From assembly GCA_965215185.1 (NCBI GenBank), contig OZ244034.1, positions 2,208,001 to 2,272,000 on the forward strand: a DNA stretch of 64,000 nt, written 5' to 3'. The DNA is from Acidimicrobiia bacterium. GTDB lineage: Bacteria > Actinomycetota > Acidimicrobiia > Spongiisociales > ZC4RG35. Below, one piece after another: positions 1-46,914 of the stretch (the first letter of the stretch is position 1; every line of letters starts with the position of its first letter). Below the pieces are notes generated by a model that did not search any database, was not told where the DNA came from, and saw only the letters and a program-made list of their open reading frames with translations. Both the position numbers and the translations under genes were made by a program.

Positions 1-784
1 GCGTTCCGATGTCATCTTCCTTCTCGTCCCCGACGAGGTGATGCCCCAAGTCTTCGAGCAGGATATCGCCCCGAACCTGGATTCGGGCAACATGTTGGTT
101 TTCGCCAGCGGCTACAACATCACTTTCGGCCTTATCAAGGCCCCCTCCGACGTAGACGTGGTTTTGATCGCCCCTCGAATGATCGGCGCAGGAGTCAGGG
201 ACACCTTTTTGAGCGGTGAGGGCTTCCCTAGTCTCATTGCCGTTCACCACTCCGCCACCGAGACGGCATTCGAGCGGATGCTGGCACTTTGCGAAGGGAT
301 CGGATCCACAAAGATGGGGGTGATCGAATCCAGTTTCCTCGAGGAGACGACAGTAGATCTATTCGCGGAGCAGGTGGGTTTTCTCTACGCGGTGCGCCGT
401 TACTGCGAAGTGCTGGTGGAGGCCGGGTGCAGTCCCGAGGCGGTCATGCTGGAATTCTATGCCTCGGGGGAGGGCATCGAGACCGCCAAGGCATATCGTG
501 ACATCGGGCTTTGGGACCAGATTACGCTACATTCCCGTACCAGCCAGTACGGGCAGGAAGTGACCAGCATGCTCTCTCCCGAGGAGGAGGAAACCGAGCG
601 GGCCAGGCTGAGAGGGATCATCTCCCATATCCAAGACGGTTCTTTCGCCCGGGAGTGGACAGGGGAACAGCAGGCTGGATTCCCGGAGTTCAACCGGGCG
701 AGGGCACTGAACATGGCCCATGAAATGCGAGCCTCGGAAAGAAAACTTTACAAGGTGCTGGGACGGATACCGGACAACGACTAA
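1..784 (+). CDS. Ketol-acid reductoisomerase (IlvC family) paralog, 5' truncated by window edge
   Basis: Motifs LVFASGYNI, DVVLIAPRMIG, EETTVDLFAEQ, HSRTSQYG and IQDGSFAREW are typical of KARI. It has APRMIG instead of the canonical APKxPG. Confidence 0.8.
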   Translation, partial: RSDVIFLLVPDEVMPQVFEQDIAPNLDSGNMLVFASGYNITFGLIKAPSDVDVVLIAPRMIGAGVRDTFLSGEGFPSLIAVHHSATETAFERMLALCEGIGSTKMGVIESSFLEETTVDLFAEQVGFLYAVRRYCEVLVEAGCSPEAVMLEFYASGEGIETAKAYRDIGLWDQITLHSRTSQYGQEVTSMLSPEEEETERARLRGIISHIQDGSFAREWTGEQQAGFPEFNRARALNMAHEMRASERKLYKVLGRIPDND

Positions 785-1662
785 GACAACCCTGTCCAAC
801 CTCCGGAGGGGCGGTCGAACCAGACGTGCACCTGCCCGGTGCCTGTCGCGTTCTCGTAGTCGGAGAATTGCCGACCCGGCGCCGAGCACTTCTCTCCACC
901 GACCGACGCCACCATAGCAAGGTAATGGCCGAACCCGGCCTCCGGCTCATGGGGCAGATAATCGGGCATGGCCCTGATGATCCTGGCATGGTCTCCCGAC
1001 GCCATCCACTCCAGTCGCACCTCGTCGGCGGCTCGGGCCTGCGGAGTAAAAATGTGAATCGGATCGGAAGCCTCGTGCTCGACCAATTGGCGCAACGGCC
1101 AGAAATGATGGGTCATACCCCCCGAAGCCAGCACCACCACCCGGCGGTCCACTGAAGCCACCGCTTCACCAACAGCTTCTCCCAGCTGCAGGAAGTCGTC
1201 GGTTTCTCCGGTTTGGACCATGCTCACCGACATCACCCGTTCACTGCGGCACAGGTAGTGGACCAGGTTGATGGTCCCGTAGTGGACCGGCAGGTACGGA
1301 TCGCAGATGGGAGTTCCCTGCACCCCCCGGCCGGTAATCGCCTGGGCTGCCGCTTCGGCCAATTCCGGGTCCCCGCGGTAGTCGTAGGGAAGCTGGGAGA
1401 TGCCGCGGGGAAGTTCCTCGGAGGTGTATTTGCCGCTGCGACGCTCGTGCGAGGAAAATACGTGTTCCACCGTGGTGTGCCAATGGGTGTCGAAGATCAC
1501 GATCGTGTCCGCAGCAAGGACATCCAGCACCTCGGTGCGCAGCCTTCTCAGCCCGGGCACCAGACTGATTTCCTTGCCCTCATTCAACTGGTAACGCACC
1601 TCGCGGGAAAGCATCACCGTCGGCGAGTGGGATATCAATCCCACTCCAACGATCTCACCCAT
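781..1662 (-). CDS. Extradiol ring-cleavage dioxygenase, LigB family (HpaD-like 3,4-dihydroxyphenylacetate 2,3-dioxygenase)
   Basis: SHSPT, IFDTHW, YRGDPELA, PVHYGT, VLASGGMTH and TGTGQV motifs. Overlaps the upstream ALDH. Confidence 0.8.
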   Translation of the reverse strand: MGEIVGVGLISHSPTVMLSREVRYQLNEGKEISLVPGLRRLRTEVLDVLAADTIVIFDTHWHTTVEHVFSSHERRSGKYTSEELPRGISQLPYDYRGDPELAEAAAQAITGRGVQGTPICDPYLPVHYGTINLVHYLCRSERVMSVSMVQTGETDDFLQLGEAVGEAVASVDRRVVVLASGGMTHHFWPLRQLVEHEASDPIHIFTPQARAADEVRLEWMASGDHARIIRAMPDYLPHEPEAGFGHYLAMVASVGGEKCSAPGRQFSDYENATGTGQVHVWFDRPSGGWTGLS

Positions 1663-3130
1663 GGTCCTTCTCCTCTCTCCAGCCTCGGGGACCGAGAACC
1701 GTGTTATTCAGATCACTGTAGAAGTCAAAACTCCAGGCGCCCCCCTCTCGGCCGATCCCCGAATGGCGGCTTCCGCCGAAGGGGGCTCGAAGGTCTCGCA
1801 CATAGAAGCAATTGATCCAGGTCGTCCCGGAAACGATCTGTGCCGCAAGCCGCTCGGCCCGGCCGGGATCACCGGTGACCACTGCCGCCGCCAAACCGAA
1901 CCGGGTGGAATTGGCCATCTCCACTACCTGCGAATCCGTGCGGAACGCCTGCAGGGTGAGCACCGGACCGAACACCTCCTCGGTGAGGATCTCCGAGCCG
2001 GGGGTGGCGTCCACAAATAGTGTGGGCCGATAGTACAGGCCACCCAGATCCCGGTTCGGGCCTCCTCCCAGCACCGCCCGCGCCCCGTTCCCGGTCGCTC
2101 GACGGACATAGCCATCCACCCGCTCCAGGTGCGGCCGGGAAATGAGCGGACCCAAATCGGTGTCGCCCAAACGGGGATCGCCCTGCACCAAAGCACCCGC
2201 TTTCTCCAAAAACCCTTCCAGGAAATCGTCGAGGATCCGCTCTTGAACGAGAAGCCGAGTGGCCGCCAGGCAGACCTGTCCGGCGTTGTCGTACTGTTCC
2301 ACCGCCATGCAGATCGCCATGTCCAGATCAGCATCTTCCAATATCACCAGTGGGGATTTTCCTCCCAACTCCAAGCTGAACGGCACCAGGTTGGCGCCCG
2401 CCACCCCGCCGATCAGCCGAGCGGTCTCCACCGAACCGGTGAAACTGATCCTGGCCACCTCCGGGTTGGAAACCAATGCCGCGCCGGCTTCCTCCCCATA
2501 CCCTTGCACGACGTTGAACACCCCCGCTGGAAGACCGGCCTCCTCGGTTATCTCGGCCAGAAGCGAGGCGGTGAGCGGTGACCATTCGGCCGGTTTGAGC
2601 ACCACGGTATTACCGGCCGCCAAGGCCGGCGCCGTCTTCCAGGTGGCCAGCATCAGCGGAGCGTTCCAGGGTGTGATCAACACCGTCACTCCCGAAGGTT
2701 GATGGGACACCCGGTTGCGGTGACCGCGGGTGTCGAACTCAGGATGGCCCAATTCCAAGAGGTTATCGGCAAAGAACCGGAAATTGTGCGCCGACCGGGG
2801 CATCAGGCCCGCCAAGTTGGACCGAAGCAACGATCCATTGTCTACCGTCTCCACCGCCGCAAGTTCCTCTGTCCGCCTGTCGATCCCCTCAGCAATCCGA
2901 TACAGAATCTCCGCCCGCTCCCGCCGGGAGGTGCGGCCCCACACAGAGAATGCCTCGGTGGCGGCTGACACCGCGGCCGAGGCTTCGGCTTCTCCACCCC
3001 GGGCGGGGGAAGCCATGTGGGACTCGTCGATGGGGGAAAGGTCGGGAAAGGTGTGGGCGGAGGGAACTCTTCTGCCTCCTATCCAATGGTCGAGGGCCAC
3101 CTCCACCCCCGCCACCATGGCGGTTCTCAT
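1655..3130 (-). CDS. Aldehyde dehydrogenase, HpaE/2-hydroxymuconic semialdehyde dehydrogenase-like
   Basis: ITPWNAPLML, LKPAEWSP, FTGS, LELGGKSP, GQVCLA, EEVFGPV and PFGG motifs. Coupled to the LigB dioxygenase. Confidence 0.85.
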   Translation of the reverse strand: MRTAMVAGVEVALDHWIGGRRVPSAHTFPDLSPIDESHMASPARGGEAEASAAVSAATEAFSVWGRTSRRERAEILYRIAEGIDRRTEELAAVETVDNGSLLRSNLAGLMPRSAHNFRFFADNLLELGHPEFDTRGHRNRVSHQPSGVTVLITPWNAPLMLATWKTAPALAAGNTVVLKPAEWSPLTASLLAEITEEAGLPAGVFNVVQGYGEEAGAALVSNPEVARISFTGSVETARLIGGVAGANLVPFSLELGGKSPLVILEDADLDMAICMAVEQYDNAGQVCLAATRLLVQERILDDFLEGFLEKAGALVQGDPRLGDTDLGPLISRPHLERVDGYVRRATGNGARAVLGGGPNRDLGGLYYRPTLFVDATPGSEILTEEVFGPVLTLQAFRTDSQVVEMANSTRFGLAAAVVTGDPGRAERLAAQIVSGTTWINCFYVRDLRAPFGGSRHSGIGREGGAWSFDFYSDLNNTVLGPRGWREEKDHG

Positions 3131-3146
3131 CTACACCCCGTAGCCC

Positions 3147-4337
3147 TCAAAACGAGATAGCCCTTGCCGCCTCCAGAGAGGAGCGGACTTCCTCTCCCGC
3201 GGTTTCCAAGGCGCGCTGTTCTTCCTCGGAGAGAGTCATCTCCACTACCTCGATCAATCCGCCCTTGCCCAACAAAGCGGGGACGCCCAGCACCATCCCC
3301 TCCATTCCATATTCGCCCTCCAATAACACCGAGACCGGTATCGCCCCGGCTCTTTGGCCTCGCAGACCGTCCAGCACTTCGCAGATCGCATGCCCAGGCG
3401 CGAGATACGCCGATCCAGTCCGGCGGAGCGAAACCACCGCCCCTCCACCGCCCACCGTGCCCTCCACGCACCGTTGGATCTGTTCGGTAGAGAGGACCCT
3501 TTGCACCGGACGTCCTTTGATGGTGGCCCTCGATAGCACCGGCACCATCTGGGGACCGTGGCGTCCCAGACAGAAGGCTTGAACATCTTTGGGGGAAACC
3601 CCCGCTTCGCGAGCCAGCAGATAACGGAATCGACTGGAGTCGAGCGTCCCGGCCATCCCCAGCACCTGCCGGCGTGGGAATCCCGAAGCAGAAAGCGCCT
3701 CATAGGTCATCTCATCCAGCGGATTGGTCACCACCACAATCACTGCGTCGGGAGCATGAGCCGCCACCTCCTCGGCCACCGAGCGAACCACCCTCCCGTT
3801 GATGGATATCAACCCCGCCCGGTCCATCCCCGGGGACCGTGGACGCCCGGCGGTGATCACCACCACCTCGGCGCCGGTAAGCAATCCTGATTCCGAACCG
3901 CCCGTCACCCTCACCGAAGAGCCGGTGATCCCCGAGGTGTGCTCCACATCGAGCGCCACCGAGGCGGCCAGCCCGGCTACCACATCCATCAAAGTGATCT
4001 CGGAGGCCATGTCGGAAGCGGCAGCCAGATGTGCCACCGTGGTGCCCACGTTTCCAGCTCCCACCACCGCCAGGCGGGCCAAACGCCGGGGTCGCCCTAC
4101 CGGGGGATCAGGCGCCATCCAGCGGGGGGAGCTTCTGTAGAGCACGCGCCGGATGGCAGTGGCCGGATCGGCGGCCCGCGGCTCGGGGACTGGTAGAGGG
4201 CCCTCCACCAGTTCTAGGCCGAGCGTCCCGATCGTTTCCCGGGCCTGGGGGGTGATGATGTCCCCGGGGAGAAAAACGATTTGGCGGCGTCCCTTCTTTG
4301 CTTCCTCCCGAACCTGGTACTCGCCGATTACTGTCAT
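3147..4337 (-). CDS. mdh: LDH-like malate dehydrogenase with ~85-aa N-terminal extension (BMC-associated)
   Basis: GAGNVG, VITAGRPRSPGMDR (Arg at the MDH specificity position), VTNPLD, GTLDSSRF and LGRHG. Start taken at ATG 4337 (MTVIGEY); the upstream part of the ORF overlaps the BMC-T gene. Confidence 0.8.
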   Translation of the reverse strand: MTVIGEYQVREEAKKGRRQIVFLPGDIITPQARETIGTLGLELVEGPLPVPEPRAADPATAIRRVLYRSSPRWMAPDPPVGRPRRLARLAVVGAGNVGTTVAHLAAASDMASEITLMDVVAGLAASVALDVEHTSGITGSSVRVTGGSESGLLTGAEVVVITAGRPRSPGMDRAGLISINGRVVRSVAEEVAAHAPDAVIVVVTNPLDEMTYEALSASGFPRRQVLGMAGTLDSSRFRYLLAREAGVSPKDVQAFCLGRHGPQMVPVLSRATIKGRPVQRVLSTEQIQRCVEGTVGGGGAVVSLRRTGSAYLAPGHAICEVLDGLRGQRAGAIPVSVLLEGEYGMEGMVLGVPALLGKGGLIEVVEMTLSEEEQRALETAGEEVRSSLEAARAISF

Positions 4338-4345
4338 AATCCCGG

Positions 4346-4969
4346 CTAGCGACCCTCTACCGCCTCCACCGCCTCCACCGCCGCATCCAAGGCGGTGACC
4401 ACGTTCTCTTCGGATCCACTGATGAACAGCCGCCCGTATCGCCCAACAGCTCTTACCTGCACCATGCTGATCAGCGCCGCCTTTTCCGCAGTGTTGGCGC
4501 CGATGGCAATATAGGCCGCCGGAGCGCACTCCAAGATGCCCAACGTCTCCCCTGGCACGACCATGCTGCCCCGCCGCCACTTGTTGAGCAACTGTGCCTG
4601 ATATGGTTCCACCGAGTTAATACGCTGGACGCTCTCGATTTGGGGCTTTATACGGTCATAGAGCGACATCCCCAAGTAACCGAGAATGCTCTCCCGGGCG
4701 ACGGTGATCTCCGACGGAACTCGGGAGCGGAGAATAAAAAACCCGAACTCTCGCTCTACGATCTGGCTGGTGGCTTCCACCGAGGAAGCTTTGAGGGCCA
4801 CGTCCACCAATCGGAACACCTCGTTACCCGGCGCCATTTCCCCCACCAGCACCGAATCGCCAGCCAGAGGAATCGATCCCTGCACGGTGGCCCCGTTGTA
4901 GGCCGCGAATTTGGGCTGTAGCCCGTCCAACTGGAAAAATGCCCGGATGGTCAGGGAGTTGTTGTTCAT
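4346..4969 (-). CDS. BMC shell trimer protein, BMC-T(dp) (CcmP/CsoS1D-like)
   Basis: LDGLQPKFAAY, EMAPG, VDVALKA, VEREFG, PYQAQLLNKWRRGSM, ANTAEKAA and GRYGRL. ATGA overlap with the AldDH stop. Confidence 0.85.
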   Translation of the reverse strand: MNNNSLTIRAFFQLDGLQPKFAAYNGATVQGSIPLAGDSVLVGEMAPGNEVFRLVDVALKASSVEATSQIVEREFGFFILRSRVPSEITVARESILGYLGMSLYDRIKPQIESVQRINSVEPYQAQLLNKWRRGSMVVPGETLGILECAPAAYIAIGANTAEKAALISMVQVRAVGRYGRLFISGSEENVVTALDAAVEAVEAVEGR

Positions 4970-6351
4970 CCGGACCTGCCGAACTCGTCCCACAGGCCTC
5001 GCCAGGGACGGTTCTGATAGGCAATCCGCTTTATGTTGATCAGGTGCAGGGCAGTTATGTTGTCCGAGGATATCGAACCCGACCAGGTGCCGGTGCCCAG
5101 CATGAAACTCGGCTCCAGATCCACCGAGTACCCCATACCTCCGTACAGACAAGGGGTGTTGACCAGGATGCGACCGGCGGGCAGCCTCCCGAATTCCGCC
5201 ACATCATCGGCATCATGGGAGTGAATCGCCAGCGTGTGCCCTATCCCCCCGAAGTTGAGGACCTCTTCGCACCTGCGGTAGCCGGCCGCCCGATCGGCCA
5301 CCACATAGAAGGCCAGCACCGGATTCAGTTTCTCGTGGGAGAGCGGATGTTCGCGACCCACCGCATCCAGTTCCGCCAGCAAGACTCGGGTGCGGGGCGG
5401 TGTGTCGAACCCGGCCAGTTGAGCCAGGCGAGCCGCCGACTGTCCCACCGTGGAAGGGATGATGCTCCCCCGCTGCCCAAAGATCACCCGTCCCAAACGG
5501 GCTGTCTCTTGGGGGGTGCAGAAATATCCGCCCGCCAGCCGCATTTCGTTGCGCAGGGCGGGCGCTATTTGCCGATGGGCGACTATGGCCTGCTCGGCGA
5601 CACAGGCGGTGCCATAGTCGAAGGACTTGGAGTTGATAATCTGCTCGGCCACTTCGTCCAATTCGTTGACCATAGAGGGACCCACGTACACGGGCACATT
5701 ACCAGGCCCCACCGCCAGAGTGGGCTTTCCTGATGAGTAGGCGGCTCTCACCATGGCGGTCCCACCCGTTGCCATCACCACCGATGTCCGCCGGTGACGC
5801 ATCAACTCTCCGCTCCCCTCCAAAGTCACCTCGGTGAGACAACTGATCAAACCCTTGGGCGCCCCGGCCGCCTCGGCCGCCTCGGCCATGATGCGGGCCG
5901 TCTCCGCACAACACCGCACCGCGCGGGGATGGGGGGCGCACACGATGGCGTTCCCGGCTTTGACCGCCGACAGCACTTTGAAGATCACAGTGGAAGTGGG
6001 GTTGGTGACCGGAATCAGGGCGGCCACCACCCCCATCGGTTCGCCCACTGCCATCACCTTGGTGGCCTGGTCATGCCACAGCACCCCCACACAGCGGACA
6101 TTGCGCAGCCATTCCCACACCCCAAGGGCGTTGAAGAGATTCTTGTACAGTTTGTCCTCGGCGTTGCCGTACTCGGTCTCGACGGCGGCCATCTCTCCCA
6201 ATCGGCCGCATTCGGGCTCGATGGCCACCACCATCGCCTCCACGATCCGGTCGATGGTCTCCTGTGATGTGCCCCGGAATTTGTCAAAGGCCGCCCGGGC
6301 GGCGGTCACCGTCTGGCGAGCCTGGGCGATGCTGCGAAGATCTGCATCCAT
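4966..6351 (-). CDS. Acylating (CoA-dependent) aldehyde dehydrogenase, EutE/PduP family
   Basis: MDADLRSIAQAR start, IPVTNPTST, PHPRA, ATGG, GPGNVP, SKSFDYGTACVAEQ, EKLNPVL and LGTGTWSG. Confidence 0.9.
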   Translation of the reverse strand: MDADLRSIAQARQTVTAARAAFDKFRGTSQETIDRIVEAMVVAIEPECGRLGEMAAVETEYGNAEDKLYKNLFNALGVWEWLRNVRCVGVLWHDQATKVMAVGEPMGVVAALIPVTNPTSTVIFKVLSAVKAGNAIVCAPHPRAVRCCAETARIMAEAAEAAGAPKGLISCLTEVTLEGSGELMRHRRTSVVMATGGTAMVRAAYSSGKPTLAVGPGNVPVYVGPSMVNELDEVAEQIINSKSFDYGTACVAEQAIVAHRQIAPALRNEMRLAGGYFCTPQETARLGRVIFGQRGSIIPSTVGQSAARLAQLAGFDTPPRTRVLLAELDAVGREHPLSHEKLNPVLAFYVVADRAAGYRRCEEVLNFGGIGHTLAIHSHDADDVAEFGRLPAGRILVNTPCLYGGMGYSVDLEPSFMLGTGTWSGSISSDNITALHLINIKRIAYQNRPWRGLWDEFGRSG

Positions 6352-6353
6352 GT

Positions 6354-7484
6354 CTATTCCGCTCTTCCCACCGCTCGGCGCACCGCGTCGAGATCGGCGT
6401 TGGCCCACCCCAAAGCCTCCAAGCGACGACCTTCCGCCCACAGGTCGCGCCCACACATGGCCGACACCACAGTCACCACTGAAGAGGTAACCGGCACGGG
6501 AACAGAAGCCATGGCCGCGGCTGAGCAGAGTGCCACCAGCGATCCCGCCGTCCCGTCCAATACCAGACCACTGAGCGTCTCCTTATCGGAGCCCGGTCTT
6601 GTATCACCAACCGGGGCAAGCGGGGTGCGCACCCCCCAGCGGGCGGCCACCGCCGCTCTTTCTTCCCCAAGCGCCCCCAGGAGGGATTCCATTTGCGGGG
6701 AAGGAACCGCCGGGTGGGGAAGGGGAGTGGCGCCGGGCAGTAGCTCTCTGGGTGTTTGGCGGGCGATAGGTCCGTCCAGTATCCCCGCGGGGACCACCGA
6801 CCAGGAACTCTCCGTAAGACTGGTGTGCAGCACGGTCGGCAAGAGTTTCATGGCCGGGAAGTAAGCGGCCAAAGACTCCCTCACGCCTTGGCCCCGGTCA
6901 GCCGGGTAGGCGGCCAAGGCTGCTTCCGAAGTGGATTCTGCCCATTGCAACCGCCCGGTTCCCACGGCCGCCACCGAAAACGGGCAGGCTTGCAACTCGA
7001 TCAGGGTTATCCCTTCAGATGCCCCGCCCGCCCTGAGCCACCAAGCCATCTCTAGAGCGCCGAAGGTTCGACCGGGTGAGATCGCCACCATCTGTCCCTC
7101 GTCCAGCAGTCCCGCCAACCGCATTCCCACCGCCCGCTGGTCGGTGAGCGACCCCACCACCACCACTAGATCCGCGCCAGCCACGGCTTGGTCGATCCAG
7201 GGAACGGGGCGGATGGCGTGTTCGGCATCGGGGTCCACCCGGTAGTTTCCCACCGGACCCCCGCCGCGTACCGAAATACCAGAGGTGGCCACCCGGGCGG
7301 CTTCCTCCCCTCTGGCCACCCACCAGCGAACCTGGGCGCCCCCGGCTAAGAATCCGGCCGCAAAAGCCCACGCCTGAAGACCTGATCCCAACACCGTCAC
7401 CTGGCCCCAGTGAGGGGCGGGAACCCGATGTTCGGAAGTAGATTCGCTCAGGGCGGCGACGACTGCCTCGAAGTCAGACAACAC
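6354..7484 (-). CDS. NAD/NADP opine (octopine/nopaline) dehydrogenase family protein, degenerate
   Basis: Rossmann-like VTVLGSG, ISPGRTFGALE, and C-terminal VPVPVTSSVV...GRDLWAEGRRLEALG. The family His-Pro motif appears replaced. Confidence 0.65.
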   Translation of the reverse strand: MLSDFEAVVAALSESTSEHRVPAPHWGQVTVLGSGLQAWAFAAGFLAGGAQVRWWVARGEEAARVATSGISVRGGGPVGNYRVDPDAEHAIRPVPWIDQAVAGADLVVVVGSLTDQRAVGMRLAGLLDEGQMVAISPGRTFGALEMAWWLRAGGASEGITLIELQACPFSVAAVGTGRLQWAESTSEAALAAYPADRGQGVRESLAAYFPAMKLLPTVLHTSLTESSWSVVPAGILDGPIARQTPRELLPGATPLPHPAVPSPQMESLLGALGEERAAVAARWGVRTPLAPVGDTRPGSDKETLSGLVLDGTAGSLVALCSAAAMASVPVPVTSSVVTVVSAMCGRDLWAEGRRLEALGWANADLDAVRRAVGRAE

Positions 7485-7501
7485 TCAATTCCGATTGCAG
7501 T

Positions 7502-7786
7502 CTAGGACCTTCCGCCGAGTTGTGGGAGCATTTCGACCCCCGCATCGGGGCGGGCGATCACATGCACTGCGACTACTTCGCCAACCTTGTTGGCGGCGAC
7601 GGCTCCAGCATCGGTGGCGGCCTTGACCGCCCCTACTTCTCCTCGAACGAAGACCGTCACCAAGCCTCCTCCGATCTTTTCCAGTGCCACCAAATCGACA
7701 TTGGCCGATTTCAACATGGCGTCTGCGGCTTCCACCGAGGCAACCATGCCCCGGGTCTCGATCATGCCTAAAGCTATTTTGTCCAA
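7502..7786 (-). CDS. BMC shell hexamer protein (BMC-H, PduA/EutM/CcmK family)
   Basis: [40 protein letters not shown] and VHVIARP. Confidence 0.97.
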
Positions 7787-7850
7787 GGTCTCTCTCCTTA
7801 GTGTTTGGCTATTGGCGGGACCCTTTCGGGTCCCGGTTTCGGTCTTTCAT

Positions 7851-8111
7851 TTACTTGGGAATCTGCACTTCGTCAACAATCATCACCGCCGCCGCGTCAG
7901 TGGGAAGACCCCGAAGCGACACAGCCTGACGGGCCGCTGAGCCCTCCGCGACCAAAACCAACTCCCCGACCCCGGCCCCCACCGCGTCGGCCACCACAGT
8001 GTCTTTTCCGCCCTCCTCGTCAATCGGCGCCACCAGCAGCAGGGTCACTCCCTGTAGCCCGGGATCTTTGATGGTCCCGGTCACCTTCCCTCTGACCCTG
8101 CACAGGCGCAT
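7851..8111 (-). CDS. BMC vertex protein (BMC-P, EutN/CcmL family)
   Basis: MRLCRVRGKVTGTIKDPGL, VVADAVGAGVGELVL, GSAAR and DAAAVMIVD. Confidence 0.95.
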   Translation of the reverse strand: MRLCRVRGKVTGTIKDPGLQGVTLLLVAPIDEEGGKDTVVADAVGAGVGELVLVAEGSAARQAVSLRGLPTDAAAVMIVDEVQIPK

Positions 8112-8114
8112 GGC

Positions 8115-9428
8115 TCAGAATGCTTCCAGATAACGGTCCCGCTCCAACTGCGTAACCGTGTCGCGCCACCCATCCGGATCCGACTCCACCATGAAGTTGT
8201 GCTCACGCTCGGCCTGCTGGGCAAGGGTGAGGCGCAGCTCCTCGGAAAGAACCTCGGCAATCAACTCGGATTTGGAGAACAACTCCAAAGCGGTAGGAAT
8301 GTCGGTGGGAAGAGCCTGGTGACGAGAGGCGGCATAACCGTCGCTCACCTCTTTATCGGTGGGCTGGGCGCCGGTGGCCATGCCCTTCAAACCCGACGCC
8401 AACTGCACGGCGGTCAAAAGGTAAGGGTTGGCGTCCGAGGAACCGTCCCGCTGCTCGATGCGCACCGCCGAGTCGCTGCCCCCCTCAATCACCCTCAATC
8501 CCACCGTGCGGTTGTCCCCGCCCCAGGCGTTGCTGGTTGGACAGAAGGTGTACCCCTGACGACGTTTCATGGAGTTAGGGGTGGGGGCGGAAATCAACGC
8601 CGTCTCCGCCATGTGCTGCTGCAGCCCTCCCAGATAGGAACGTCCCAGCGCCGAGAGACGGCCCCCGTCGGCAAAGACGTTCTTTCCGTCTTTCCACAAT
8701 GACTGGTGGAGATGGAAACTGTTGCCGGACTCCCCGAAGAAGGGCTTCGCCATGAATGAGGCCAGCATTCCGTGGTTATAGGCGATCTCTTTGACCGAGT
8801 TTCGGAACAACATGGCGTTGTCGGCCGAGGTGAGGGCTTCCCCGTAGCGGAGGTTTATCTCGATCTGCCCGGGGGCGTATTCGGGATTGGACATCTCCAC
8901 TTGGATACCCATTTCGCTGCAGAGATTGCGGATCGGCCCCACCACATGCTCGAACATCGCTCCCCGCGCCAACCCGTATACAGAGATTCCCGAGTCCACC
9001 AGCTGCTTGGTCTCCAGATCAAGCAGGTAGAACTCGAACTCCACTCCGGTCTTTACCTCGTAACCCTGGTCCGCGGCCTTGGTGACCTGCTCCACCAACA
9101 CATTGCGGGGATCGCAGCATACTGGGCTGCCGTCTATCTCCTCCGCACGTCCCAACACCAGCACCACCCCCTCCTCCCAGGGAACCGGCCTCATGGTTTC
9201 CAGCATCGGAATGATGTGGACATCGGCGTAGCCGTTCGCAAAATTCGCATAGGGGGTATCCCAGATGTCGTTAGTCACGTCCATCTGAAAAATGGCGTTG
9301 CACATTCCAACGCCATGCTTGAATTCTTCCCAAACCCCAGCCTGAACCCGCTTGCCCCGGGCGATGGCGTTCAAGTCCCCTAGTGCCAAAACTACCGTGT
9401 GAGTGCCTTCCGGCAACGACTGCGCCAC
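8115..9428 (-). CDS. Glutamine synthetase-like gamma-glutamyl-amine ligase (PuuA/GlnA3/GlnA4 type)
   Basis: ARGKRV, GVEFEFYL, EYAPGQIEINL, FMAKPF, GNSFHLHQSL, WGGDNRT and RIEQR..DANPYL. Confidence 0.85.
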   Translation of the reverse strand: MAQSLPEGTHTVVLALGDLNAIARGKRVQAGVWEEFKHGVGMCNAIFQMDVTNDIWDTPYANFANGYADVHIIPMLETMRPVPWEEGVVLVLGRAEEIDGSPVCCDPRNVLVEQVTKAADQGYEVKTGVEFEFYLLDLETKQLVDSGISVYGLARGAMFEHVVGPIRNLCSEMGIQVEMSNPEYAPGQIEINLRYGEALTSADNAMLFRNSVKEIAYNHGMLASFMAKPFFGESGNSFHLHQSLWKDGKNVFADGGRLSALGRSYLGGLQQHMAETALISAPTPNSMKRRQGYTFCPTSNAWGGDNRTVGLRVIEGGSDSAVRIEQRDGSSDANPYLLTAVQLASGLKGMATGAQPTDKEVSDGYAASRHQALPTDIPTALELFSKSELIAEVLSEELRLTLAQQAEREHNFMVESDPDGWRDTVTQLERDRYLEAF

Positions 9429-9527
9429 GGGATTCTCCTCTCTGTACCGTACTCTGATTCTTGTGGTCGGCTTAGCTGCTTTGCCCTTACTCCTAGCAGA
9501 AGCGGCGGTATAACATCATAGTGGAAG

Positions 9528-10700
9528 ATGTCCCGATCCCGGGTTGGAGGAACAACTTTGAGTAGAGCCAGGGAGGCAGTGGTGGTAGGCGCGGGGATCG
9601 CCGGTGCCATGACCGCCCTGCATCTGCGCCGCGCCGGGCTTTCGGTGCGTCTGGTCGACGCGTGGGATCCCGGCCATGCCCGAGCCGCTTCCGCCGGGAC
9701 CCATCGGCTGATTCGCTCCACCCATGGAACCGATGAGTTGTACACCCTGTGGAGTCGGGAAGCCCGCTTGCGTTGGATGGAGCTGTCTCAACACGTCGGC
9801 CGGCGTTTCTACTACGAATCGGGAGTGGTGATCCTGGCCGCGGAGGGGCACTCGAAATGGGAGGACGCCACCCAGGTCACCCTATCGAAACTGGGGATAC
9901 CCTTTTTCGTCGTTCCCCCCCGAGAGCTTCCCACCCGGCTGCCGGTGGTCAACCCACGGGGGATAGCCTATGGGTTGTGGGAGCCCGAGGCAGGCTTCAT
10001 CCTCTCCAGAGACGCCCTGGTAGCGACGGTGCAGTTGTTTTGCGCCGAGGGCGGGGAGTTGGTCCGAGGCAGGGCGCAGACCAATGAGAACGAATGGCCG
10101 ACCCTCAATGGAAAGCCCATCCGGGCCGACCTGGTGGTTATGGCATGTGGGGCTTGGATGGGCAGCCTTTTCCCCCGCACCCTGGGCAGGATCCTGTCGA
10201 TCGTCCGCCAGGATGTAATCCTCGTCTCCCCACCGGTTGGTGACACCCGCTACGACTGGGAGAACATGCCGGGCTGGATAGATCACGGCTATCCCGCCTA
10301 TGGCGTGCCTGCCGTGAATGGCCACGGCTTCAAGGCGGCTTTTGCCTGGCATCACGGCATGATGGACATCGACCGCTCCGATCGAGTCACCGATCCCTCC
10401 ACCGTGGCGCGCTGTCGTCGCTATCTGGCCACTCGCTTTCCGGAGTTAGCGGATTCGGTGATAACCGACCAGAAGGTATGCCAGATAGTCAACACCCCCG
10501 ACCGCCACTTCATCATCGACCGCCATCCCGACCATGAGAATCTGGTGCTGGTCACGGGAGGATCGGGACATCTCTACAAGCACGGGCCGGTGTTGGGAGA
10601 ATTCGTAGCGGACTTTTCCTTGGGTCGGCATGGAACCAACCAGCGTTTTCGCCTAGACCGCCCTCGCACCGCTTCATCAGCCATTGACGATCCCCAGTAA
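9528..10700 (+). CDS. FAD-dependent amine oxidase, monomeric sarcosine oxidase / N-methyltryptophan oxidase family
   Basis: VVGAGIAG, ASAGTHRLIR, ACGAW, CQIVNTPDRHFIIDRHP and GGSGHLYKHGP. Divergent from the BMC operon. Confidence 0.8.
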   Translation: MSRSRVGGTTLSRAREAVVVGAGIAGAMTALHLRRAGLSVRLVDAWDPGHARAASAGTHRLIRSTHGTDELYTLWSREARLRWMELSQHVGRRFYYESGVVILAAEGHSKWEDATQVTLSKLGIPFFVVPPRELPTRLPVVNPRGIAYGLWEPEAGFILSRDALVATVQLFCAEGGELVRGRAQTNENEWPTLNGKPIRADLVVMACGAWMGSLFPRTLGRILSIVRQDVILVSPPVGDTRYDWENMPGWIDHGYPAYGVPAVNGHGFKAAFAWHHGMMDIDRSDRVTDPSTVARCRRYLATRFPELADSVITDQKVCQIVNTPDRHFIIDRHPDHENLVLVTGGSGHLYKHGPVLGEFVADFSLGRHGTNQRFRLDRPRTASSAIDDPQ

Positions 10701-10903
10701 CGCCGCCGGCCTTGGAAAGTGTGTTGACCGGCCAGTGTCACAGCCTGGGTTTAGAGTTGGATTTGTGAAAAAAATTCCTCATATCAACAAAAAACCTCCT
10801 AAACCGTGAAAAAGCGGAAAGCACCTGCTAGATGGGGAATCGCACCTTTAGAACGCGAAAACCTCGACTAGATCGCTAAAAACCACTCTTTACCTTTTCG
10901 TAA

Positions 10904-10943
10904 TAGACCAGTCCTCCCACCAGTAGACCAGTCCTCCCACCAG
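10904..10943. repeat. Perfect 20-bp tandem duplication upstream of dnaB
   Basis: TAGACCAGTCCTCCCACCAG at 10904-10923 and 10924-10943. Confidence 0.9.
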
Positions 10944-10969
10944 TCCCCCGCTACCAGAAGGCCTCCGGC

Positions 10970-14801: not shown

Positions 14802-14859
14802 GAACGATGATAGAAAACCCATGGGTGCTAGTTGCCGCTCTTCAGAGCCAGCCTTTCGA

Positions 14860-36517: not shown

Positions 36518-36624
36518 TGGGCGACTCGCTCGACCGGCATCATCGGGGTGCCGGCGCGGCAGCGGGCCGGAGGTGCGGCATCATCCCGGCTTCAGTAGCT
36601 GGCCACCTTGGGTCATCCGTGCGA

Positions 36625-38391: not shown

Positions 38392-38614
38392 CTTTGGCCT
38401 CCCATCGGAACTCGCTTCTCTCCGCTGAATGGAGAATACTCCAAGTCCGGGAAGACAACCCGGCCATACAGGGCAGTTTCTCGGGACGTCAGCCACCTTT
38501 GGGCAATCTCAGTCTTTGTAAGTGATCCCTAGCCGCGCGGTTGGATTTGCTCCGCTAACCCCGTGCCAGGGCTTTCTCAAATCCGATTAGGCTTAACCTT
38601 TGTCACAAGGCCCT

Positions 38615-44902: not shown

Positions 44903-44945
44903 TTCTTCTCCCTGATCAAGAGTCGTCTTGCATCTTTTGTGGCAT

Positions 44946-45914: not shown

Positions 45915-45933
45915 TCTTCCTCCTTCAACAGTT

Positions 45934-46884: not shown

Positions 46885-46914
46885 ACTCTATCTCCTGAAG
46901 TACCGGCCTAAACC

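Follow-up and report, generated by a model that had tools for sequence, protein, structure and literature searches.

The locus described here is very probably a MIC2-type metabolosome (“metabolosome with incomplete core, type 2”) lying in the chromosome of a member of the Acidimicrobiia, and the best overall explanation, to which we attribute a probability of about 0.6, is that this MIC2 metabolosome serves the breakdown of amines via glutamate-linked intermediates. The locus does not represent a new class of organelle; its sets of shell proteins and enzymes match MIC2 item by item. This type was catalogued in 2021 by Sutter, Melnicki, Schulz, Woyke, and Kerfeld (Nat Commun, Supplementary Data 2; PMC8217296), whose entry for it assigns no function. 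What is newly noted here is that a sarcosine-oxidase-like gene and an N-methylglutamate-synthase-like (Mgs-like) trio with a transporter are near-constant partners of MIC2.

Organization of the Locus

In the window, i.e., the whole stretch of 64,000 nucleotides that was analysed, the open reading frames and their Pfam and NCBIfam matches define nine tightly packed minus-strand genes (781-9428), with intergenic distances from -8 to 64 nt, and a divergent flavin oxidase gene (9528-10700). All ten genes were found in the order and on the strands given in the original prediction. The first gene of the operon, with a GTG start, codes for a GS-like ligase (8115-9428; PF00120, 279 bits) and is followed by those for a BMC-P pentamer (vertex) shell protein (7851-8111; PF03319 EutN_CcmL, 88.5 bits, full length), a BMC-H hexamer shell protein with a TTG start (7502-7786; PF00936, 95.7 bits), an opine-dehydrogenase-family protein of 376 aa (6354-7484; profile match to PDB 1bg6), and a CoA-acylating aldehyde dehydrogenase (AldDH) of 461 aa (4966-6351; TIGR02518, 500 bits). 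Further downstream on the same strand lie the genes for a tandem-domain, CcmP-like (double-stacking, “dp”) BMC-T of 207 aa (4346-4969; NF053796), an N-extended malate-dehydrogenase-type enzyme (MDH) of 396 aa (3147-4337; PF00056 and PF02866), an HpaE-like non-acylating NAD(P)-dependent aldehyde dehydrogenase (1655-3130; PF00171, 493 bits), and a single-subunit LigB-type extradiol ring-cleavage dioxygenase (781-1662; PF02900, 89 bits). The plus-strand gene (9528-10700) encodes an MSOX/MTOX-like flavoenzyme of the DAO family (PF01266, 151 bits). Since in three cases the longest open reading frame runs into a neighbouring gene, the starts of MDH (ATG at 4337), BMC-T (4969), and AldDH (6351) were set further in.

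The comparison drew on six relatives from the window's family and on 67 distant metagenome loci; the latter do not count as independent, falling into 44 clusters at 90% identity and 7 single-linkage clusters at 70%. The order of the core genes is identical in four related genome loci and was also found in 40 of the 67 metagenome loci (those long enough for all six core genes) and in four further genomes of the family; the recurrence of the same order in all these loci argues that the arrangement is not due to chance. The close relatives keep their housekeeping flanks too, so that their synteny says little. Two metatranscriptome runs, both from one study, yielded contigs with 95-99% identity to the window, which between them partly cover nine of the ten genes and span the AldDH/opine-DH, opine-DH/BMC-H, and BMC-P/GS junctions. 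They are weak evidence for expression of the locus: they do not show a single transcript, and DNA carry-over is possible.

Assignment to MIC2 and Structure of the Shell

The assignment is based on the fact that every item in the catalogue entry (PMC8217296) is present at the locus, namely an AldDh lacking an encapsulation peptide, a pfam00120 GS, a pfam02866 LDH/MDH whose N-terminus is extended by ~70 aa, a feature confined to BMC loci, and a protein of the 6-phosphogluconate-DH-like superfamily with a possible N-terminal helical peptide of ~10 aa; the entry records two actinobacterial members. The divergent MSOX-like oxidase, the Mgs-like trio, the transporter, RidA, and the hydrolase genes, all linked to MIC2 loci in our data, are additional to these catalogue items (PMC8217296). 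The window's genus differs further in that the 3' end bears additional genes for an HpaE-like ALDH and a LigB dioxygenase and in that the Mgs-like genes lie elsewhere in the genome, unlike the loci in which they are linked. The original prediction had foreseen an overlap with an uncharacterised MIC class, which is borne out by the fit to MIC2, and its concern that the locus might belong to an already characterised BMC type applies by half, as MIC2 had been catalogued but had received no function. It had also described the BMC locus as being of the metabolosome type, with a shell that is minimal, an acylating AldDH, and neither the classical signature enzymes nor PTAC, and the Pfam analysis of every gene of the locus agrees with this. 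Indeed, a search of the whole genome found no PTAC, EutB, or PFL-like protein and only one, distant copy of Pta, hence the incomplete core.

Concerning the shell, PF00936 has only two matches in the 3.12-Mb genome, of which BMC-H is one; the protein is 93-97% identical in close relatives. BMC-T scores 198.5 bits with the CcmP model NF053796, a match that takes in 201 residues (68-268 of the long open reading frame) and stays below the cut-off of 340, its second domain scores 29 bits with PF00936, and its identity to the metagenome proteins is 69-76%. The ARO microcompartment (Doron, Sutter, and Kerfeld 2023; PMC10470539) is also actinobacterial and likewise has a LigB-family dioxygenase and a semialdehyde-dehydrogenase-like ALDH near the shell genes; its locus carries two pfam02900 subunits, a pair of BMC-H, a single BMC-P, no BMC-T, and an AldDh that is an outlier, whereas in the window there is one LigB, together with a BMC-T and an acylating AldDH. 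The ARO class was rejected on these grounds and because the single LigB is closer to 8iq8 than to 7txy_B.

AldDH reaches 500 bits with the model for acetaldehyde dehydrogenase (acetylating), TIGR02518, under the cut-off of 620. Its identity is 60-68% across phyla and 90-93% in close relatives, an invariant Cys lies within the conserved core (alignment A5), and there is no long terminal extension, the C-terminal tail of ~12 residues being conserved. MDH exceeds the cut-off of the “malate dehydrogenase” model NF004863 (329.6 bits vs 283). Its N-terminal extension of ~85 residues, made up of a folded unit of ~45 aa (pLDDT ~88-93 for residues 1-47 of the AF2 model) and a linker, occurs in BMC contexts only and is kept from Acidimicrobiia to marine loci with 16 invariant columns; it found no match in Pfam, PDB sequences, or Foldseek. 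A 2024 paper (PMC11626177) counts MIC2 as one of the types for which NAD+ regeneration “has yet to be determined”; we give even odds to the idea that MDH regenerates NAD+ inside the shell.

Conserved Partners of the MIC2 Core

The best NCBIfam match of the GS-like ligase is type III GS (TIGR03105; 216 bits vs a cut-off of 470), the family under which GmaS is annotated (PMC6237917), and the protein reaches 191 bits with the gamma-glutamylputrescine synthetase (PuuA-type) model, whose cut-off is 650. Its PDB matches are 5dm3, 7cql (type III GS), 9qur (glutamate-methylamine ligase), and 4hpp. We infer from these similarities a gamma-glutamyl-amine synthetase, with scores under both the GmaS-type and the PuuA-type cut-offs. 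The flavoenzyme scores 192 bits with the MTOX model NF008425, under the cut-off of 257, and its nearest solved structures are MSOX 1el5 (E 1e-31) and MTOX 2uzz. The residues opposite Cys315, Arg49, Arg52, and Lys348 of 1el5 are identical; we take these four to be functional in MSOX, the carboxylate-binding Arg and Lys included. The oxidase carries no terminal extension resembling an encapsulation peptide, so that any aldehyde formed by it would arise outside the shell. Wherever a metagenome locus extends at least 1.4 kb upstream (39 loci), a homologue is present, divergent from and upstream of the GS-like gene, and the same holds for three genomes of the family (G186, G086, and G430); none was found within 20 kb of the locus in a fourth, G174.

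In the metagenome loci that reach at least 6 kb upstream (24 in all), genes for class-II GATase-like, GXGXG, and FMN glutamate-synthase-like proteins are present in 21, 21, and 22, respectively, and a GntR regulator in 21; downstream, at least 3 kb are available for 31 loci, of which 30 have RidA and 23 an ABC binding protein. The domain types and sizes of the trio are those of MgsA, MgsB, and MgsC (PMC6237917), and its identification is by domain types, sizes, and order alone, NCBIfam having no MgsABC model. Within the window's family, the MIC2 core has genes for a permease, a 197-aa protein, and the Mgs-like trio as linked neighbours, and three layouts occur: the module is convergent in G186 and G430, in G086 it lies on the opposite strand ~4 kb downstream, and in G174 it forms part of one co-directional run (permease-197aa-MgsABC-GS-BMCP-BMCH-opineDH-AldDH-BMCT-MDH). 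In the 61-genome family sample, an MgsB-like orthologue (E<=1e-94) is found in exactly the seven genomes, spanning five genera, that have a MIC2-like two-hit BMC pattern, and in none of the 54 others. The window's genome holds a G186-type module (L076:6489-11748; 61-80% identical to that of G186), and its Mgs-like trio lies ~450 kb from the MIC2 locus (at about G000:C1:1,760,711-1,763,747). Class-I GATase/Peptidase_C26 genes, in or beside many MIC2 loci, are candidates for gamma-glutamyl hydrolases.

The Opine-Dehydrogenase-Like Protein

The 376-aa protein has no Pfam or NCBIfam match at E<=0.001, scoring under Pfam's Octopine_DH threshold. Its description as opine-DH-like is supported: a profile matches PDB 1bg6 (Arthrobacter N-(1-D-carboxyethyl)-L-norvaline dehydrogenase) near full length (residues 27-372; E 7e-27), 1bg6 is also the top Foldseek match (E 1e-12, with a poor AF2 model of pLDDT only 59), and the nearest Atlas clusters are octopine/nopaline DH. 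With opine dehydrogenases (1bg6 and octopine DH 3c7a) it shares full-length profile and fold similarity, the Rossmann motif, and several invariant pairs; it differs from them by an N-terminal amphipathic helix plus linker (about residues 1-27), a segment that is similar to an encapsulation peptide, restricted to the BMC-linked clade, and absent from ordinary opine DHs of ~360 aa. The site opposite His202 of 1bg6 is a gap or Val in the window and is occupied by Glu, Asp, Ser, or Gly in most other members of the BMC clade (His also occurs), and the counterpart of Arg292 is shifted or lost, the window's protein having no Arg near it. For octopine DH, PMC2924402 ascribes function to a His-Asp dyad and an Arg “sensor”. 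Since the counterparts of His202 and Arg292 are missing, the protein may not be a working dehydrogenase; it is also the least conserved of the locus (71-93% in close relatives vs 90-93% for AldDH). It is a candidate for either an encapsulated aldehyde-generating enzyme or a non-catalytic core scaffold; that it might be the lumenal aldehyde generator is a tentative idea, with somewhat less than an even chance of being correct.

A Possible Route for Amine Breakdown

The comparative data favour the amine, gamma-glutamylation, and MDH-recycling idea of the original prediction, and the balance inclines slightly towards amine catabolism by gamma-glutamyl/N-alkylglutamate chemistry as the probable function. 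According to this scheme, a small primary amine would be taken up by an APC permease (Acidimicrobiia) or a LivJ-type ABC system (marine loci) and ligated to glutamate by the GS-like enzyme with ATP; the three-subunit N-methylglutamate-synthase-like enzyme would convert the gamma-glutamyl product into an N-alkyl-L-glutamate, whose N-alkyl C-N bond would be cleaved oxidatively to glutamate and an aldehyde, with the opine-DH-like protein targeted to the shell, the MSOX-like oxidase, or both as catalyst. The aldehyde would be trapped in the minimal shell and converted to an acyl-CoA by AldDH, and the lumenal NADH would be reoxidised by MDH (oxaloacetate to malate), replacing the usual alcohol dehydrogenase, while the HpaE-like ALDH and the LigB dioxygenase would be a separate two-gene module at the operon's 3' end in this genus. 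A CoA-acylating AldDH in the shell suggests an aldehyde of C2 or larger rather than folate-bound formaldehyde. Given that there is no phosphotransacylase, CoA turnover is unexplained in the scheme, which also leaves the shell crossing of CoA, NAD+, oxaloacetate, and malate unaccounted for. The lack of linkage between the Mgs-like genes and the MIC2 locus in the window's genome speaks against it.

A closely related known system is the N-methylglutamate pathway (gmaS, mgsABC, mgdABCD), for which the description in PMC6237917 includes, in M. extorquens, an mgsABC-gmaS operon beside a divergent NMG dehydrogenase operon. As in the MIC2 loci, a GS-like ligase stands beside a three-subunit enzyme with class-II amidotransferase-like, GXGXG, and FMN glutamate-synthase-like subunits, an N-alkyl amino acid oxidoreductase is divergently encoded, and the end products, as in our scheme, are an aldehyde and glutamate (PMC6237917). 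In contrast to the pathway described there, the four-subunit NMG dehydrogenase is absent from our locus, which has a monomeric MSOX-like oxidase and the opine-DH-like protein instead; the ligase lies under the type III GS cut-off, and the aldehyde would be passed to a CoA-acylating AldDH within a protein shell.

Alternative Explanations

One might suppose that the opine-DH-like protein is a pseudoenzyme, i.e., an NAD(P)- or cargo-binding scaffold with an encapsulation peptide, and that the flavin oxidase alone makes the aldehyde. The dyad His, which the window's genus has lost and which varies across the BMC clade, the fastest evolution in the locus, and an AldDH that lacks an encapsulation peptide and must be recruited by another protein all point this way, but many columns are (near-)invariant across the clade and the enzymatic outgroup, among them the Rossmann Gly motif, a Glu-Arg pair, and a Gly-Arg pair; moreover, G174 has the opine-DH-like protein with no oxidase within 20 kb, and the oxidase has no targeting signal, which together make the scaffold rather unlikely. 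Two other glutamyl-based routes concern the substrate. In the Puu pathway of E. coli, putrescine is gamma-glutamylated and then degraded with the aid of a flavin oxidase, an aldehyde dehydrogenase, and a hydrolase of the Peptidase_C26 family; MIC2 loci share these kinds of enzymes and, in our scheme, the gamma-glutamyl handle. A similar polyamine route, in which one amino group of a diamine would be gamma-glutamylated, the flavoenzyme would oxidise the other, the resulting gamma-glutamyl-aminoaldehyde would go to AldDH in the shell, and a Peptidase_C26 hydrolase would remove the glutamyl group, has in our estimate only a small probability. It accords with the 191-201 bits of the GS-like proteins on the gamma-glutamylputrescine synthetase model, with a PuuD-like hydrolase (NF008471, 222 bits vs a cut-off of 266) downstream in one group of marine loci, with class-I GATase genes at many others, and with carbon-nitrogen hydrolase genes after the MDH gene in G186 and G086; yet the PuuA score is far under 650, an oxidase of the MSOX/MTOX kind with the MSOX Arg/Lys positions identical is better suited to N-substituted amino acids than to a free terminal amine, and the co-occurring Mgs-like trio and the opine-DH-like protein are left with no role. 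Gamma-glutamyl pathways have also been described for ethanolamine and isopropylamine, and RMM1 is an amino-alcohol organelle; RMM1/AAUM resembles our proposal in that an amine-derived aldehyde is processed in an actinobacterial shell. The 6-phosphogluconate-DH-superfamily protein might accordingly oxidise the hydroxyl of a gamma-glutamyl amino alcohol (ethanolamine- or aminopropanol-like) to the aldehyde used by AldDH. The RMM1 AldDh is the nearest characterised relative in the comparison of Sutter et al. (PMC8217296), the Acidimicrobiia permease matches the ethanolamine permease model weakly (67 bits vs a cut-off of 382), the Foldseek list shows the superfamily of the opine-DH fold to be rich in hydroxy-acid and alcohol dehydrogenases, and a P450 adjoins the G086 locus. 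Against this stand the full-length profile match specifically to an opine (secondary-amine) dehydrogenase, an Mgs-like trio with no role, and the absence of an RMM-kind kinase or phospho-lyase, and we hold the amino-alcohol route to be quite improbable. The trio belongs to neither Puu nor RMM1/AAUM; further differences are that in MIC2 loci the oxidase is MSOX-like and the AldDH CoA-acylating and shell-associated.

An aryl- or catechol-amine organelle (tyramine- or dopamine-like), in which an arylacetaldehyde is sequestered and LigB and the HpaE-like enzyme perform meta-cleavage in one co-transcribed pathway, would account for several features of the 3' end. A spacer of 16 nt separates the HpaE-like gene from the MDH gene, the LigB start overlaps the end of the HpaE-like gene by 8 nt, the order MDH/HpaE-like/LigB is kept in 4/4 close relatives, and a metatranscriptome contig covers 814-961 within LigB; however, the gap before the HpaE-like gene is ~350 nt in two sister species, and synteny in close relatives is uninformative where housekeeping flanks are common to them. 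The closest solved relative of LigB is 3,4-dihydroxyphenylacetate 2,3-dioxygenase (8iq8; E 5e-22), followed by the aminophenol dioxygenase beta subunit (7txy_B), but both proteins are far under the equivalog cut-offs (LigB, 135 bits vs 316 for HpaD TIGR02298; the ALDH, 496 vs 638 for HpaE TIGR02299, and 442 vs 693 for 2-hydroxymuconic semialdehyde DH), and no other hpa-type genes were found in the 64-kb window. Homologues of the two are present in 0/67 distant MIC2 loci, and LigB orthologues (46-88% identity) occur in 31/61 family genomes, mostly devoid of MIC2, vs ~7 genomes with it, the usual layout being ALDH | MarR-LigB: outside the window's genus (62-68% identity), 24 of 26 loci have a divergent ALDH beside LigB, with MarR between them in 20 of the 24. 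Conversely, genus g13 (G186 and G430) has MIC2 with no LigB match in either sampled genome. The meta-cleavage genes, which the original prediction had counted in the enzyme set, are therefore not supported as members of the conserved one, and with their absence from the 67 distant loci its suggestion of catechol- or aryl-amines as core substrate loses support as well; we regard such an organelle as improbable.

For the breakdown of amines via glutamate-linked intermediates, which remains our preferred reading, the HpaE-like ALDH and LigB are probably not needed. The existence of an independent ALDH/MarR/LigB module in many family genomes lacking MIC2 indicates that the two are lineage-specific neighbours. 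LigB adjoins MIC2 in two different arrangements, one in the window's genus and the other in G086, where a 65%-identical LigB, in favour of the aryl-amine reading, directly adjoins the oxidase gene and has MarR, acetoacetate-decarboxylase-family, P450, and FAA-hydrolase genes as neighbours; there may be a lineage-specific functional tie between LigB and MIC2.

Organization of the Locus and Its Assignment to the MIC2 Type

The substrate is not known for about a third of the catalogued microcompartment types, and those with an "incomplete core" are the hardest ones, because no enzyme of the locus is an obvious aldehyde source. The analysis of the ten genes, whose originally predicted positions were confirmed by ORF listing and translation and by Pfam and NCBIfam searches, indicated that the locus is most probably a metabolosome-like member of one of these types, MIC2 (metabolosome with incomplete core, type 2), every MIC2 item read in the catalogue of Sutter et al. 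(PMC8217296, Supplementary Data 2) having a counterpart in it. The MIC2 entry of this catalogue comprises an AldDh (pfam00171) without an encapsulation peptide, a lactate/malate dehydrogenase (pfam02866) with an N-terminal extension of ~70 aa restricted to BMC loci, a protein of the 6-phosphogluconate-dehydrogenase-like superfamily with a short N-terminal helical peptide, and a glutamine synthetase (pfam00120), with neither a satellite locus nor a second BMC type.

In the window, the shell genes, all on the minus strand, encode a BMC-H (PF00936; 7502-7786), a BMC-P (PF03319; 7851-8111), and a CcmP-like BMC-T with tandem domains (start placed at 4969). On the same strand, the CoA-acylating AldDH (461 aa, start placed at 6351) has the N-terminus conserved in all its relatives, its sole addition being a conserved C-terminal tail of ~12 residues; the LDH/MDH-family protein (start placed at 4337) carries an extension of ~85 residues ahead of the Rossmann domain, conserved across loci; the opine dehydrogenase-like protein (376 aa; 6354-7484), which gave no Pfam or NCBIfam match at E ≤ 0.001, has an N-terminal helix (residues 4-13 in the model) whose hydrophobic pattern is conserved; and the GS-like ligase (8115-9428) matches PF00120 with 279 bits. 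The whole genome (95% complete, with the window in one 3.12-Mb contig) contains two PF00936 matches only, both at this single BMC locus. Three of the longest ORFs (those of MDH, BMC-T, and AldDH) overlap their neighbours, and hence their later starts were taken from the conserved N-termini of relatives. Successive minus-strand genes are spaced by -8 to 64 nt, and the GS-like gene lies 99 nt from the divergent DAO-family oxidase gene (9528-10700, plus strand).

The locus as such is a fresh member of an already known type without an assigned function. Indeed, MIC2 is catalogued without function in the entry of PMC8217296, and a paper of 2024 (PMC11626177), in its passage on this type, counts it among those whose NAD+ regeneration "has yet to be determined". 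In the open-access literature, we found neither a functional study of MIC2 nor a link of microcompartments to opine dehydrogenases or to N-methylglutamate or gamma-glutamyl amine pathways; PMC12180729 treats microcompartments in general terms only.

The original prediction had considered an overlap with a MIC or an ARO class, and only the former proved right. The ARO type has two pfam02900 subunits, two BMC-H and one BMC-P, no BMC-T, and an ARO-type AldDh, a set that differs from that of the locus, where we found a single LigB, a single BMC-H, a BMC-T, and an AldDH that is acylating and EutE-like. A carboxysome was rejected as well, the CcmP, CcmL, and CsoS1 scores being below cut-off and RuBisCO and carbonic anhydrase being absent from the locus. 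As had been foreseen, Pfam searches of the locus revealed none of the signature enzymes of the classical metabolosomes EUT, PDU, and GRM (EutBC, PduCDE, or a glycyl-radical enzyme) and no PduL-type phosphotransacylase. Genome searches, with positive controls, found no PF06751 (EutB), PF02901 (PFL-like), or PF06130 (PTAC) in the single contig; the search with PF02286 also gave no match, but neither did its control, and one ordinary Pta is encoded far from the locus. The locus is not of the ARO, EUT, PDU, GRM, or RMM type.

The HpaE-LigB Pair

The genes coding for the LigB-type dioxygenase (781-1662) and the HpaE-like non-acylating ALDH (1655-3130), both on the minus strand, had been regarded as partners of the locus and tentatively linked to the homoprotocatechuate meta pathway. 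The scores obtained do not support this pathway (135 vs. 316 bits with the HpaD model and 496 vs. 638 bits with the HpaE model), and no further hpa-type genes were found in the 64-kb window; nor is the partnership supported, tblastn having found HpaE-like and LigB genes in none of 67 distant loci and the pair having a distribution of its own in the family.

LigB orthologues (E ≤ 1e-30) occur in 31 of the 61 family genomes and in 20 of the 38 genera, which makes them far commoner than MIC2. At 26 loci outside the window's genus, with LigB identities of 62-68%, a divergent HpaE-like ALDH gene lies beside LigB in 24 cases (the exceptions being one MIC2-like genome, G086, and one short contig), its product being 49-58% identical to that of the window; a MarR gene lies ahead of LigB in 22, and both ALDH and MarR are present in 20. 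This module, a divergent ALDH gene facing MarR-LigB (loci L092-L117 of the family), is found in about half of the family genomes, with a microcompartment or without. Since LigB outnumbers MIC2, has this usual ALDH and MarR setting, and gave no match in two genomes with MIC2 (G186 and G430), the comparative analysis identifies HpaE-LigB as an independent module, usually under putative MarR control. In the window's genus, the MarR gene has been lost and the pair stands in line behind the MDH gene, where 16-24 nt separate the MDH and HpaE-like genes in the window and in two relatives, compared with ~350 nt in two further ones. The striking mix of enzymes at the locus is partly due to the juxtaposition of two modules that are unrelated, seen in a single genus.

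In G086, the MarR-LigB unit abuts the oxidase gene and its neighbours are P450, acetoacetate-decarboxylase-family, and FAA-hydrolase genes. Because two differing adjacencies are seen in two of the five MIC2-like genera, there is room for a local functional tie of the pair to MIC2, a tie that appears doubtful to us. The nearest solved structure of the LigB protein is the 3,4-dihydroxyphenylacetate 2,3-dioxygenase 8iq8 (E 5e-22), with which the conserved His-containing stretches align, and therefore the protein is probably an active extradiol dioxygenase. In one related MAG (L001:5807-7287), the HpaE-like gene was matched by tblastn in two overlapping pieces (residues 2-256 and 239-491), which may reflect a frameshift or an assembly error.

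Conserved Neighbours in Distant Metagenome Loci

The 67 distant loci, mostly marine by contig names, were obtained from a scan of metagenome contigs for which 11 distant opine-DH-like proteins had been aligned; they are not independent, falling into 44 clusters at 90% identity and, by single linkage at 70%, into 7. According to tblastn with the window proteins, all six larger core genes are present in 40 of them, the rest being short contigs. The identity to the window is 31-44% for the opine-DH-like protein, 49-56% for the GS-like ligase, 60-68% for AldDH, 69-76% for BMC-T, 49-57% for MDH, and 42-53% for the oxidase, whose gene is divergent and upstream of the GS-like gene in all the 39 loci with at least 1.4 kb of upstream sequence.

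Further neighbours were counted by tblastn after clustering the ORFs of the 24 longest loci and running Pfam on one representative per cluster. Upstream, we found a GntR/FCD regulator (21/24) and three genes coding for a class-II amidotransferase-like protein of ~314 aa (21/24), a GXGXG protein of ~230 aa (21/24), and an FMN glutamate-synthase-like protein (22/24), often together with a class-I amidotransferase/Peptidase_C26. Downstream are RidA (30/31), a Leu/Ile/Val-type ABC transporter (binding protein in 23/31), and sometimes an SDR or a PuuD-like hydrolase, the latter scoring 222 bits with NF008471 (cut-off 266). The marine binding protein has only generic Leu/Ile/Val-type PDB matches (best E 1e-7), from which no ligand can be deduced.

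The class-II amidotransferase-like, GXGXG, and FMN glutamate-synthase-like proteins have the domain types, sizes, and order of MgsA, MgsB, and MgsC of N-methylglutamate synthase as these are outlined in PMC6237917; we refer to them as the Mgs-like trio, a name given from domain architecture alone, since NCBIfam holds no curated MgsABC model. In its account of M. extorquens, the same paper reports an mgsABC-gmaS operon adjoining a divergent NMG dehydrogenase operon, with GmaS annotated under the type III GS family. The locus resembles the N-methylglutamate pathway in the front end, except that its ligase does not score as GmaS. Its best models, type III GS and gamma-glutamylputrescine synthetase, are both far under cut-off, and with the type III GS model TIGR03105 (cut-off 469.6) the window ligase reached 216 bits and a marine homologue 243 bits. 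A four-subunit NMG dehydrogenase (SoxBDAG-like) was not found in or beside the loci examined; genome searches with PF04267 and PF04268 gave no match, but neither did their controls.

The whole set of data defines a recurrent unit made up of a transporter, the GS-like ligase, the Mgs-like trio, the MSOX-like oxidase, the opine-DH-like protein, the acylating AldDH, and MDH, often joined by RidA and a candidate glutamyl-amide hydrolase.

Distribution of the Unit in the Window's Family

Four related Acidimicrobiia loci retain the full gene order, including HpaE-LigB and the oxidase; this says little, because the housekeeping flanks are also kept. The opine-DH-like marker (E ≤ 1e-20) was found in 5 of the 401 sampled genomes of the class, all belonging to one family. 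BMC-domain genes occur in 25 of the 61 sampled genomes of this family, seven of which (the window's own, G336, G086, G186, G430, G174, and, as fragments, G262) exhibit the MIC2-like pattern of one BMC-H and one weak BMC-T match. An MgsB-like orthologue (E ≤ 1e-94) is present in precisely these seven genomes and in none of the 54 others, with weaker paralogues (~1e-45) in G409 and G428; since the seven genomes fall into five genera and are kin, this co-occurrence is to be read as a pattern and not as a statistic.

In the window's own genome, the search for GXGXG revealed a stand-alone copy ~450 kb from the window, in a stretch (G000:C1:1758488-1763747, corresponding to L076:6489-11748) coding for an APC permease, a 197-aa protein, and the three Mgs-like proteins. 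For the 197-aa protein, the protein atlas suggested DUF3156, which is a lead only, and nothing relevant on this family was found in the open-access literature. The same five-gene module is convergent to the MIC2 core in G186 and G430. In G086, homologues of MgsC and MgsB are encoded on the other strand ~4 kb downstream, at the border of the region fetched. G174 harbors one co-directional run in the order permease, 197-aa protein, MgsA, MgsB, MgsC, GS, BMC-P, BMC-H, opine-DH, AldDH, BMC-T, and MDH; here, the opine-DH-like protein is matched only weakly (27% identity over 262 residues), and the 20 kb fetched contain no oxidase gene. Searches of the window's genome gave no clear orthologue of the carbon-nitrogen hydrolase (best 29% identity, E 1e-4) or of the class-I GATase, for which the best match (37% identity) is located 52 kb outside the window.

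The AldDH tree, which is unrooted, includes 22 rows (four of the window's genus, G186, G086, and 16 metagenome loci, the other loci being left out); the AldDH of the window's genus stands on a long branch (0.55), and the tree does not separate vertical descent from transfer.

Some other features of these genomes are worth reporting. A carbon-nitrogen hydrolase gene lies directly after MDH in G186 (L082:5085-5993) and G086 (L083:13754-15139), in the position held by HpaE-LigB in the window's genus. One genome of the latter genus (G333; 94% complete, 160 contigs) gave no match for the opine-DH-like marker, LigB, the BMC domain, or the MgsB-like protein, so that the whole set is either jointly missing or located in assembly gaps. 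The 18 remaining genomes with BMC genes show a single match (G407), a lone tandem-domain pair (G413), or, in most cases, three to four matches of another pattern, in which a BMC-H and an adjacent weak BMC-domain match accompany an ORF carrying two BMC domains in tandem (for example, G190:C18:9946-12806 and G414:C159:6741-9585); the genomes with this pattern may be of the actinobacterial MIC1 type.

Structure and Possible Role of the Enzymes

The opine-DH-like protein, searched with a 14-sequence profile, matches the Arthrobacter N-(1-D-carboxyethyl)-L-norvaline dehydrogenase 1bg6 over residues 27-372 (E 7e-27). Foldseek with its AlphaFold model (mean pLDDT 59), the C-terminal half of which is weak, also placed 1bg6 on top, followed by imine reductases and octopine dehydrogenase, and the protein-atlas neighbours are octopine/nopaline DH clusters. 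On the basis of this homology, the 376-aa protein is a member of the opine dehydrogenase family. An exhaustive profile search retrieved 1218 representatives at E ≤ 0.001, of which 40 reached E ≤ 1e-30; in the top-scoring ones, ~390-420 aa long, the match begins at residues 1-5, and in ordinary opine dehydrogenases (~360 aa) only at residues 27-29. In the extra N-terminus, a variable linker comes after a predicted short helix whose hydrophobic pattern is conserved, and BMC encapsulation peptides have this layout.

The alignments included 31 of the 150 representatives listed and a second set of 18 sequences. The site opposite His202 of 1bg6 is His-Pro in the four ordinary opine dehydrogenases of the 18-sequence alignment and mostly Glu, also Asp, Ser, Gly, and His, in the BMC clade; in the window's genus, it is a one-residue gap beside Val. 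The Arg opposite Arg292 is three positions off in most members of the clade and absent in the window's genus (1bg6 numbers are those of the profile-to-PDB match). We take His202 and Arg292 to be the equivalents of the dyad His and the Arg "sensor" of octopine dehydrogenase. The section of PMC2924402 on the latter enzyme describes a catalytic dyad formed by His and Asp and an Arg acting as a "sensor" of NADH. The changed His and Arg sites therefore imply that the protein departed from canonical opine-DH chemistry. Among close relatives, it shows the lowest identity at the locus (71-93%, vs. 90-93% for AldDH and 93-97% for BMC-H).

A main question concerns the source of the aldehyde. By family, two proteins are candidates for the oxidation of a C-N bond, the MSOX-like oxidase and the opine-DH-like protein; relatives of the former act on N-methyl amino acids and those of the latter on N-substituted amino acids with NAD(P)+. 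The nearest relatives of the oxidase are monomeric sarcosine oxidase and N-methyltryptophan oxidase, and its alignment with the MSOX structure 1el5 revealed identical residues at Cys315, presumably the flavin-linking one, and at Arg49, Arg52, and Lys348, presumably the binders of the substrate carboxylate. This enzyme might be a cytosolic alternative or act on a different (e.g., N-methylated) form. The opine-DH-like protein is favoured as the lumenal aldehyde generator, tentatively and at somewhat below even odds, because it is the sole carrier of a targeting peptide and the sole nearby candidate in G174. The loss of the dyad His speaks for the alternative of a protein serving as a scaffold, which we regard as rather unlikely.

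The MDH passed the NCBIfam cut-off of the malate dehydrogenase subfamily (329.6 vs. 283 bits). In the AF2 model, its first ~47 residues form a small alpha/beta unit (pLDDT 88-93), with 16 columns invariant from Acidimicrobiia through the marine loci. No Pfam family was matched by the N-terminal domain (95 aa) in any of 15 members at E ≤ 0.1, nor by the window's extension alone (87 aa); the profile search against PDB gave a single insignificant match (E 0.024), and Foldseek gave none at E ≤ 0.001. Hence, the EutQ/cupin-like homology given in the MIC2 part of PMC8217296 for the LDH/MDH extension was not reproduced by these three approaches. The complex prediction of AldDH with the MDH N-domain, run without controls, scored 0.00, which speaks neither for nor against an interaction. 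The C-terminal tail of AldDH (window 4966-5010; ~12 residues), which contains Arg-Pro-Trp-Arg, is conserved in all the MIC2 AldDHs and could be a short interaction motif.

A Possible Pathway

The chemistry that we infer for the recurrent unit is modelled on the N-methylglutamate pathway. Ligation of an amine onto the gamma-carboxyl of glutamate would be followed by its transfer, yielding an N-alkylglutamate, whose alkyl C-N bond would be oxidised to give back glutamate and an aldehyde. AldDH would convert the aldehyde into an acyl-CoA, and the encapsulated MDH would reoxidise NADH to NAD+, consuming oxaloacetate. RidA would be compatible with a pathway having imine intermediates. Since no phosphotransacylase was found, the recycling of CoA would not be accounted for. 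Among the shell components, only the BMC-T, being of the CcmP type, might let large cofactors through. The likeness of AldDH to acetaldehyde dehydrogenases suggests an aldehyde of at least two carbons.

In the most far-reaching reading, with a probability of roughly 0.3, MIC2 would be a widespread (marine Proteobacteria and Acidimicrobiia), oxygen-tolerant amine organelle without B12 or radical chemistry, generating its aldehyde by a chemistry unseen in microcompartments. The amine would be put on glutamate by the GS-like and NMG-synthase-like enzymes, the N-alkylglutamate would be cleaved inside the shell by a targeted and remodelled opine dehydrogenase (His changed to an acidic residue), and NAD+ would be recycled by the encapsulated malate dehydrogenase, with oxaloacetate and malate shuttling through the gated pore of BMC-T. 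In its boldest form, methylamine would be among the substrates and formaldehyde would be confined by the shell.

For MIC2, the comparative data point to a concrete candidate pathway, in which the proteins at issue are the ligase, the Mgs-like trio, the opine-DH-like protein, and the oxidase, and the encapsulated malate dehydrogenase is a suggested answer to the question of NAD+ regeneration. If this is true, organelle biochemistry would gain a glutamate-mediated amine pathway, and a minimal shell of three proteins with defined cargo tags would be available for engineering. Relative to the literature consulted, the constant linkage to the MSOX-like oxidase and the Mgs-like trio, the pathway hypothesis derived from it, and the independence of HpaE-LigB appear to be new, although these MIC2 neighbours may already be on display in the 2021 catalogue of Sutter et al.

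Expression and Genomic Surroundings

Among the 24 runs listed, two metatranscriptome runs of one study contain 12-15% of the sampled words. Their RNA contigs on 1-11000 are 95-99% identical to the window and cover pieces of the LigB, MDH, BMC-T, AldDH, opine-DH-like, BMC-H, BMC-P, GS-like, and oxidase genes; single contigs bridge the AldDH/opine-DH (6276-6519), opine-DH/BMC-H (7004-7828), and BMC-P/GS (8027-8274) junctions. There is no cover over 1102-3670, which includes the whole HpaE-like gene, or over the KARI gene, and such holes prove nothing. The cover obtained is a weak indication of expression of the locus in a close relative, since a contig is no proof of a single transcript and DNA may be present in an RNA library. 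A consensus scan of 1-11000 gave two promoter and four terminator sites, not above shuffle expectation.

According to Pfam, the genes flanking the locus are housekeeping ones; ketol-acid reductoisomerase is encoded on one side, DnaB, a PASTA kinase, and a penicillin-binding protein are encoded on the other, and the remainder of the 64-kb window contains no genes related to it. The kinase and penicillin-binding protein genes belong to a cell-wall/division cluster on the minus strand (12525-18223) that encodes a Ser/Thr kinase with five PASTA domains, the penicillin-binding protein, an FtsW/RodA-family protein, and a PP2C phosphatase; their order, with DnaB between them and the locus, is kept in three of the four related loci (L002-L004). 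Farther away, the window harbors two large CitMHS-family transporters with TrkA-C domains (34190-38496) and a phosphate regulon block (41314-50122) with a histidine kinase and a response regulator, PhoU, Pst-type ABC transporter genes, and a polyphosphate kinase.
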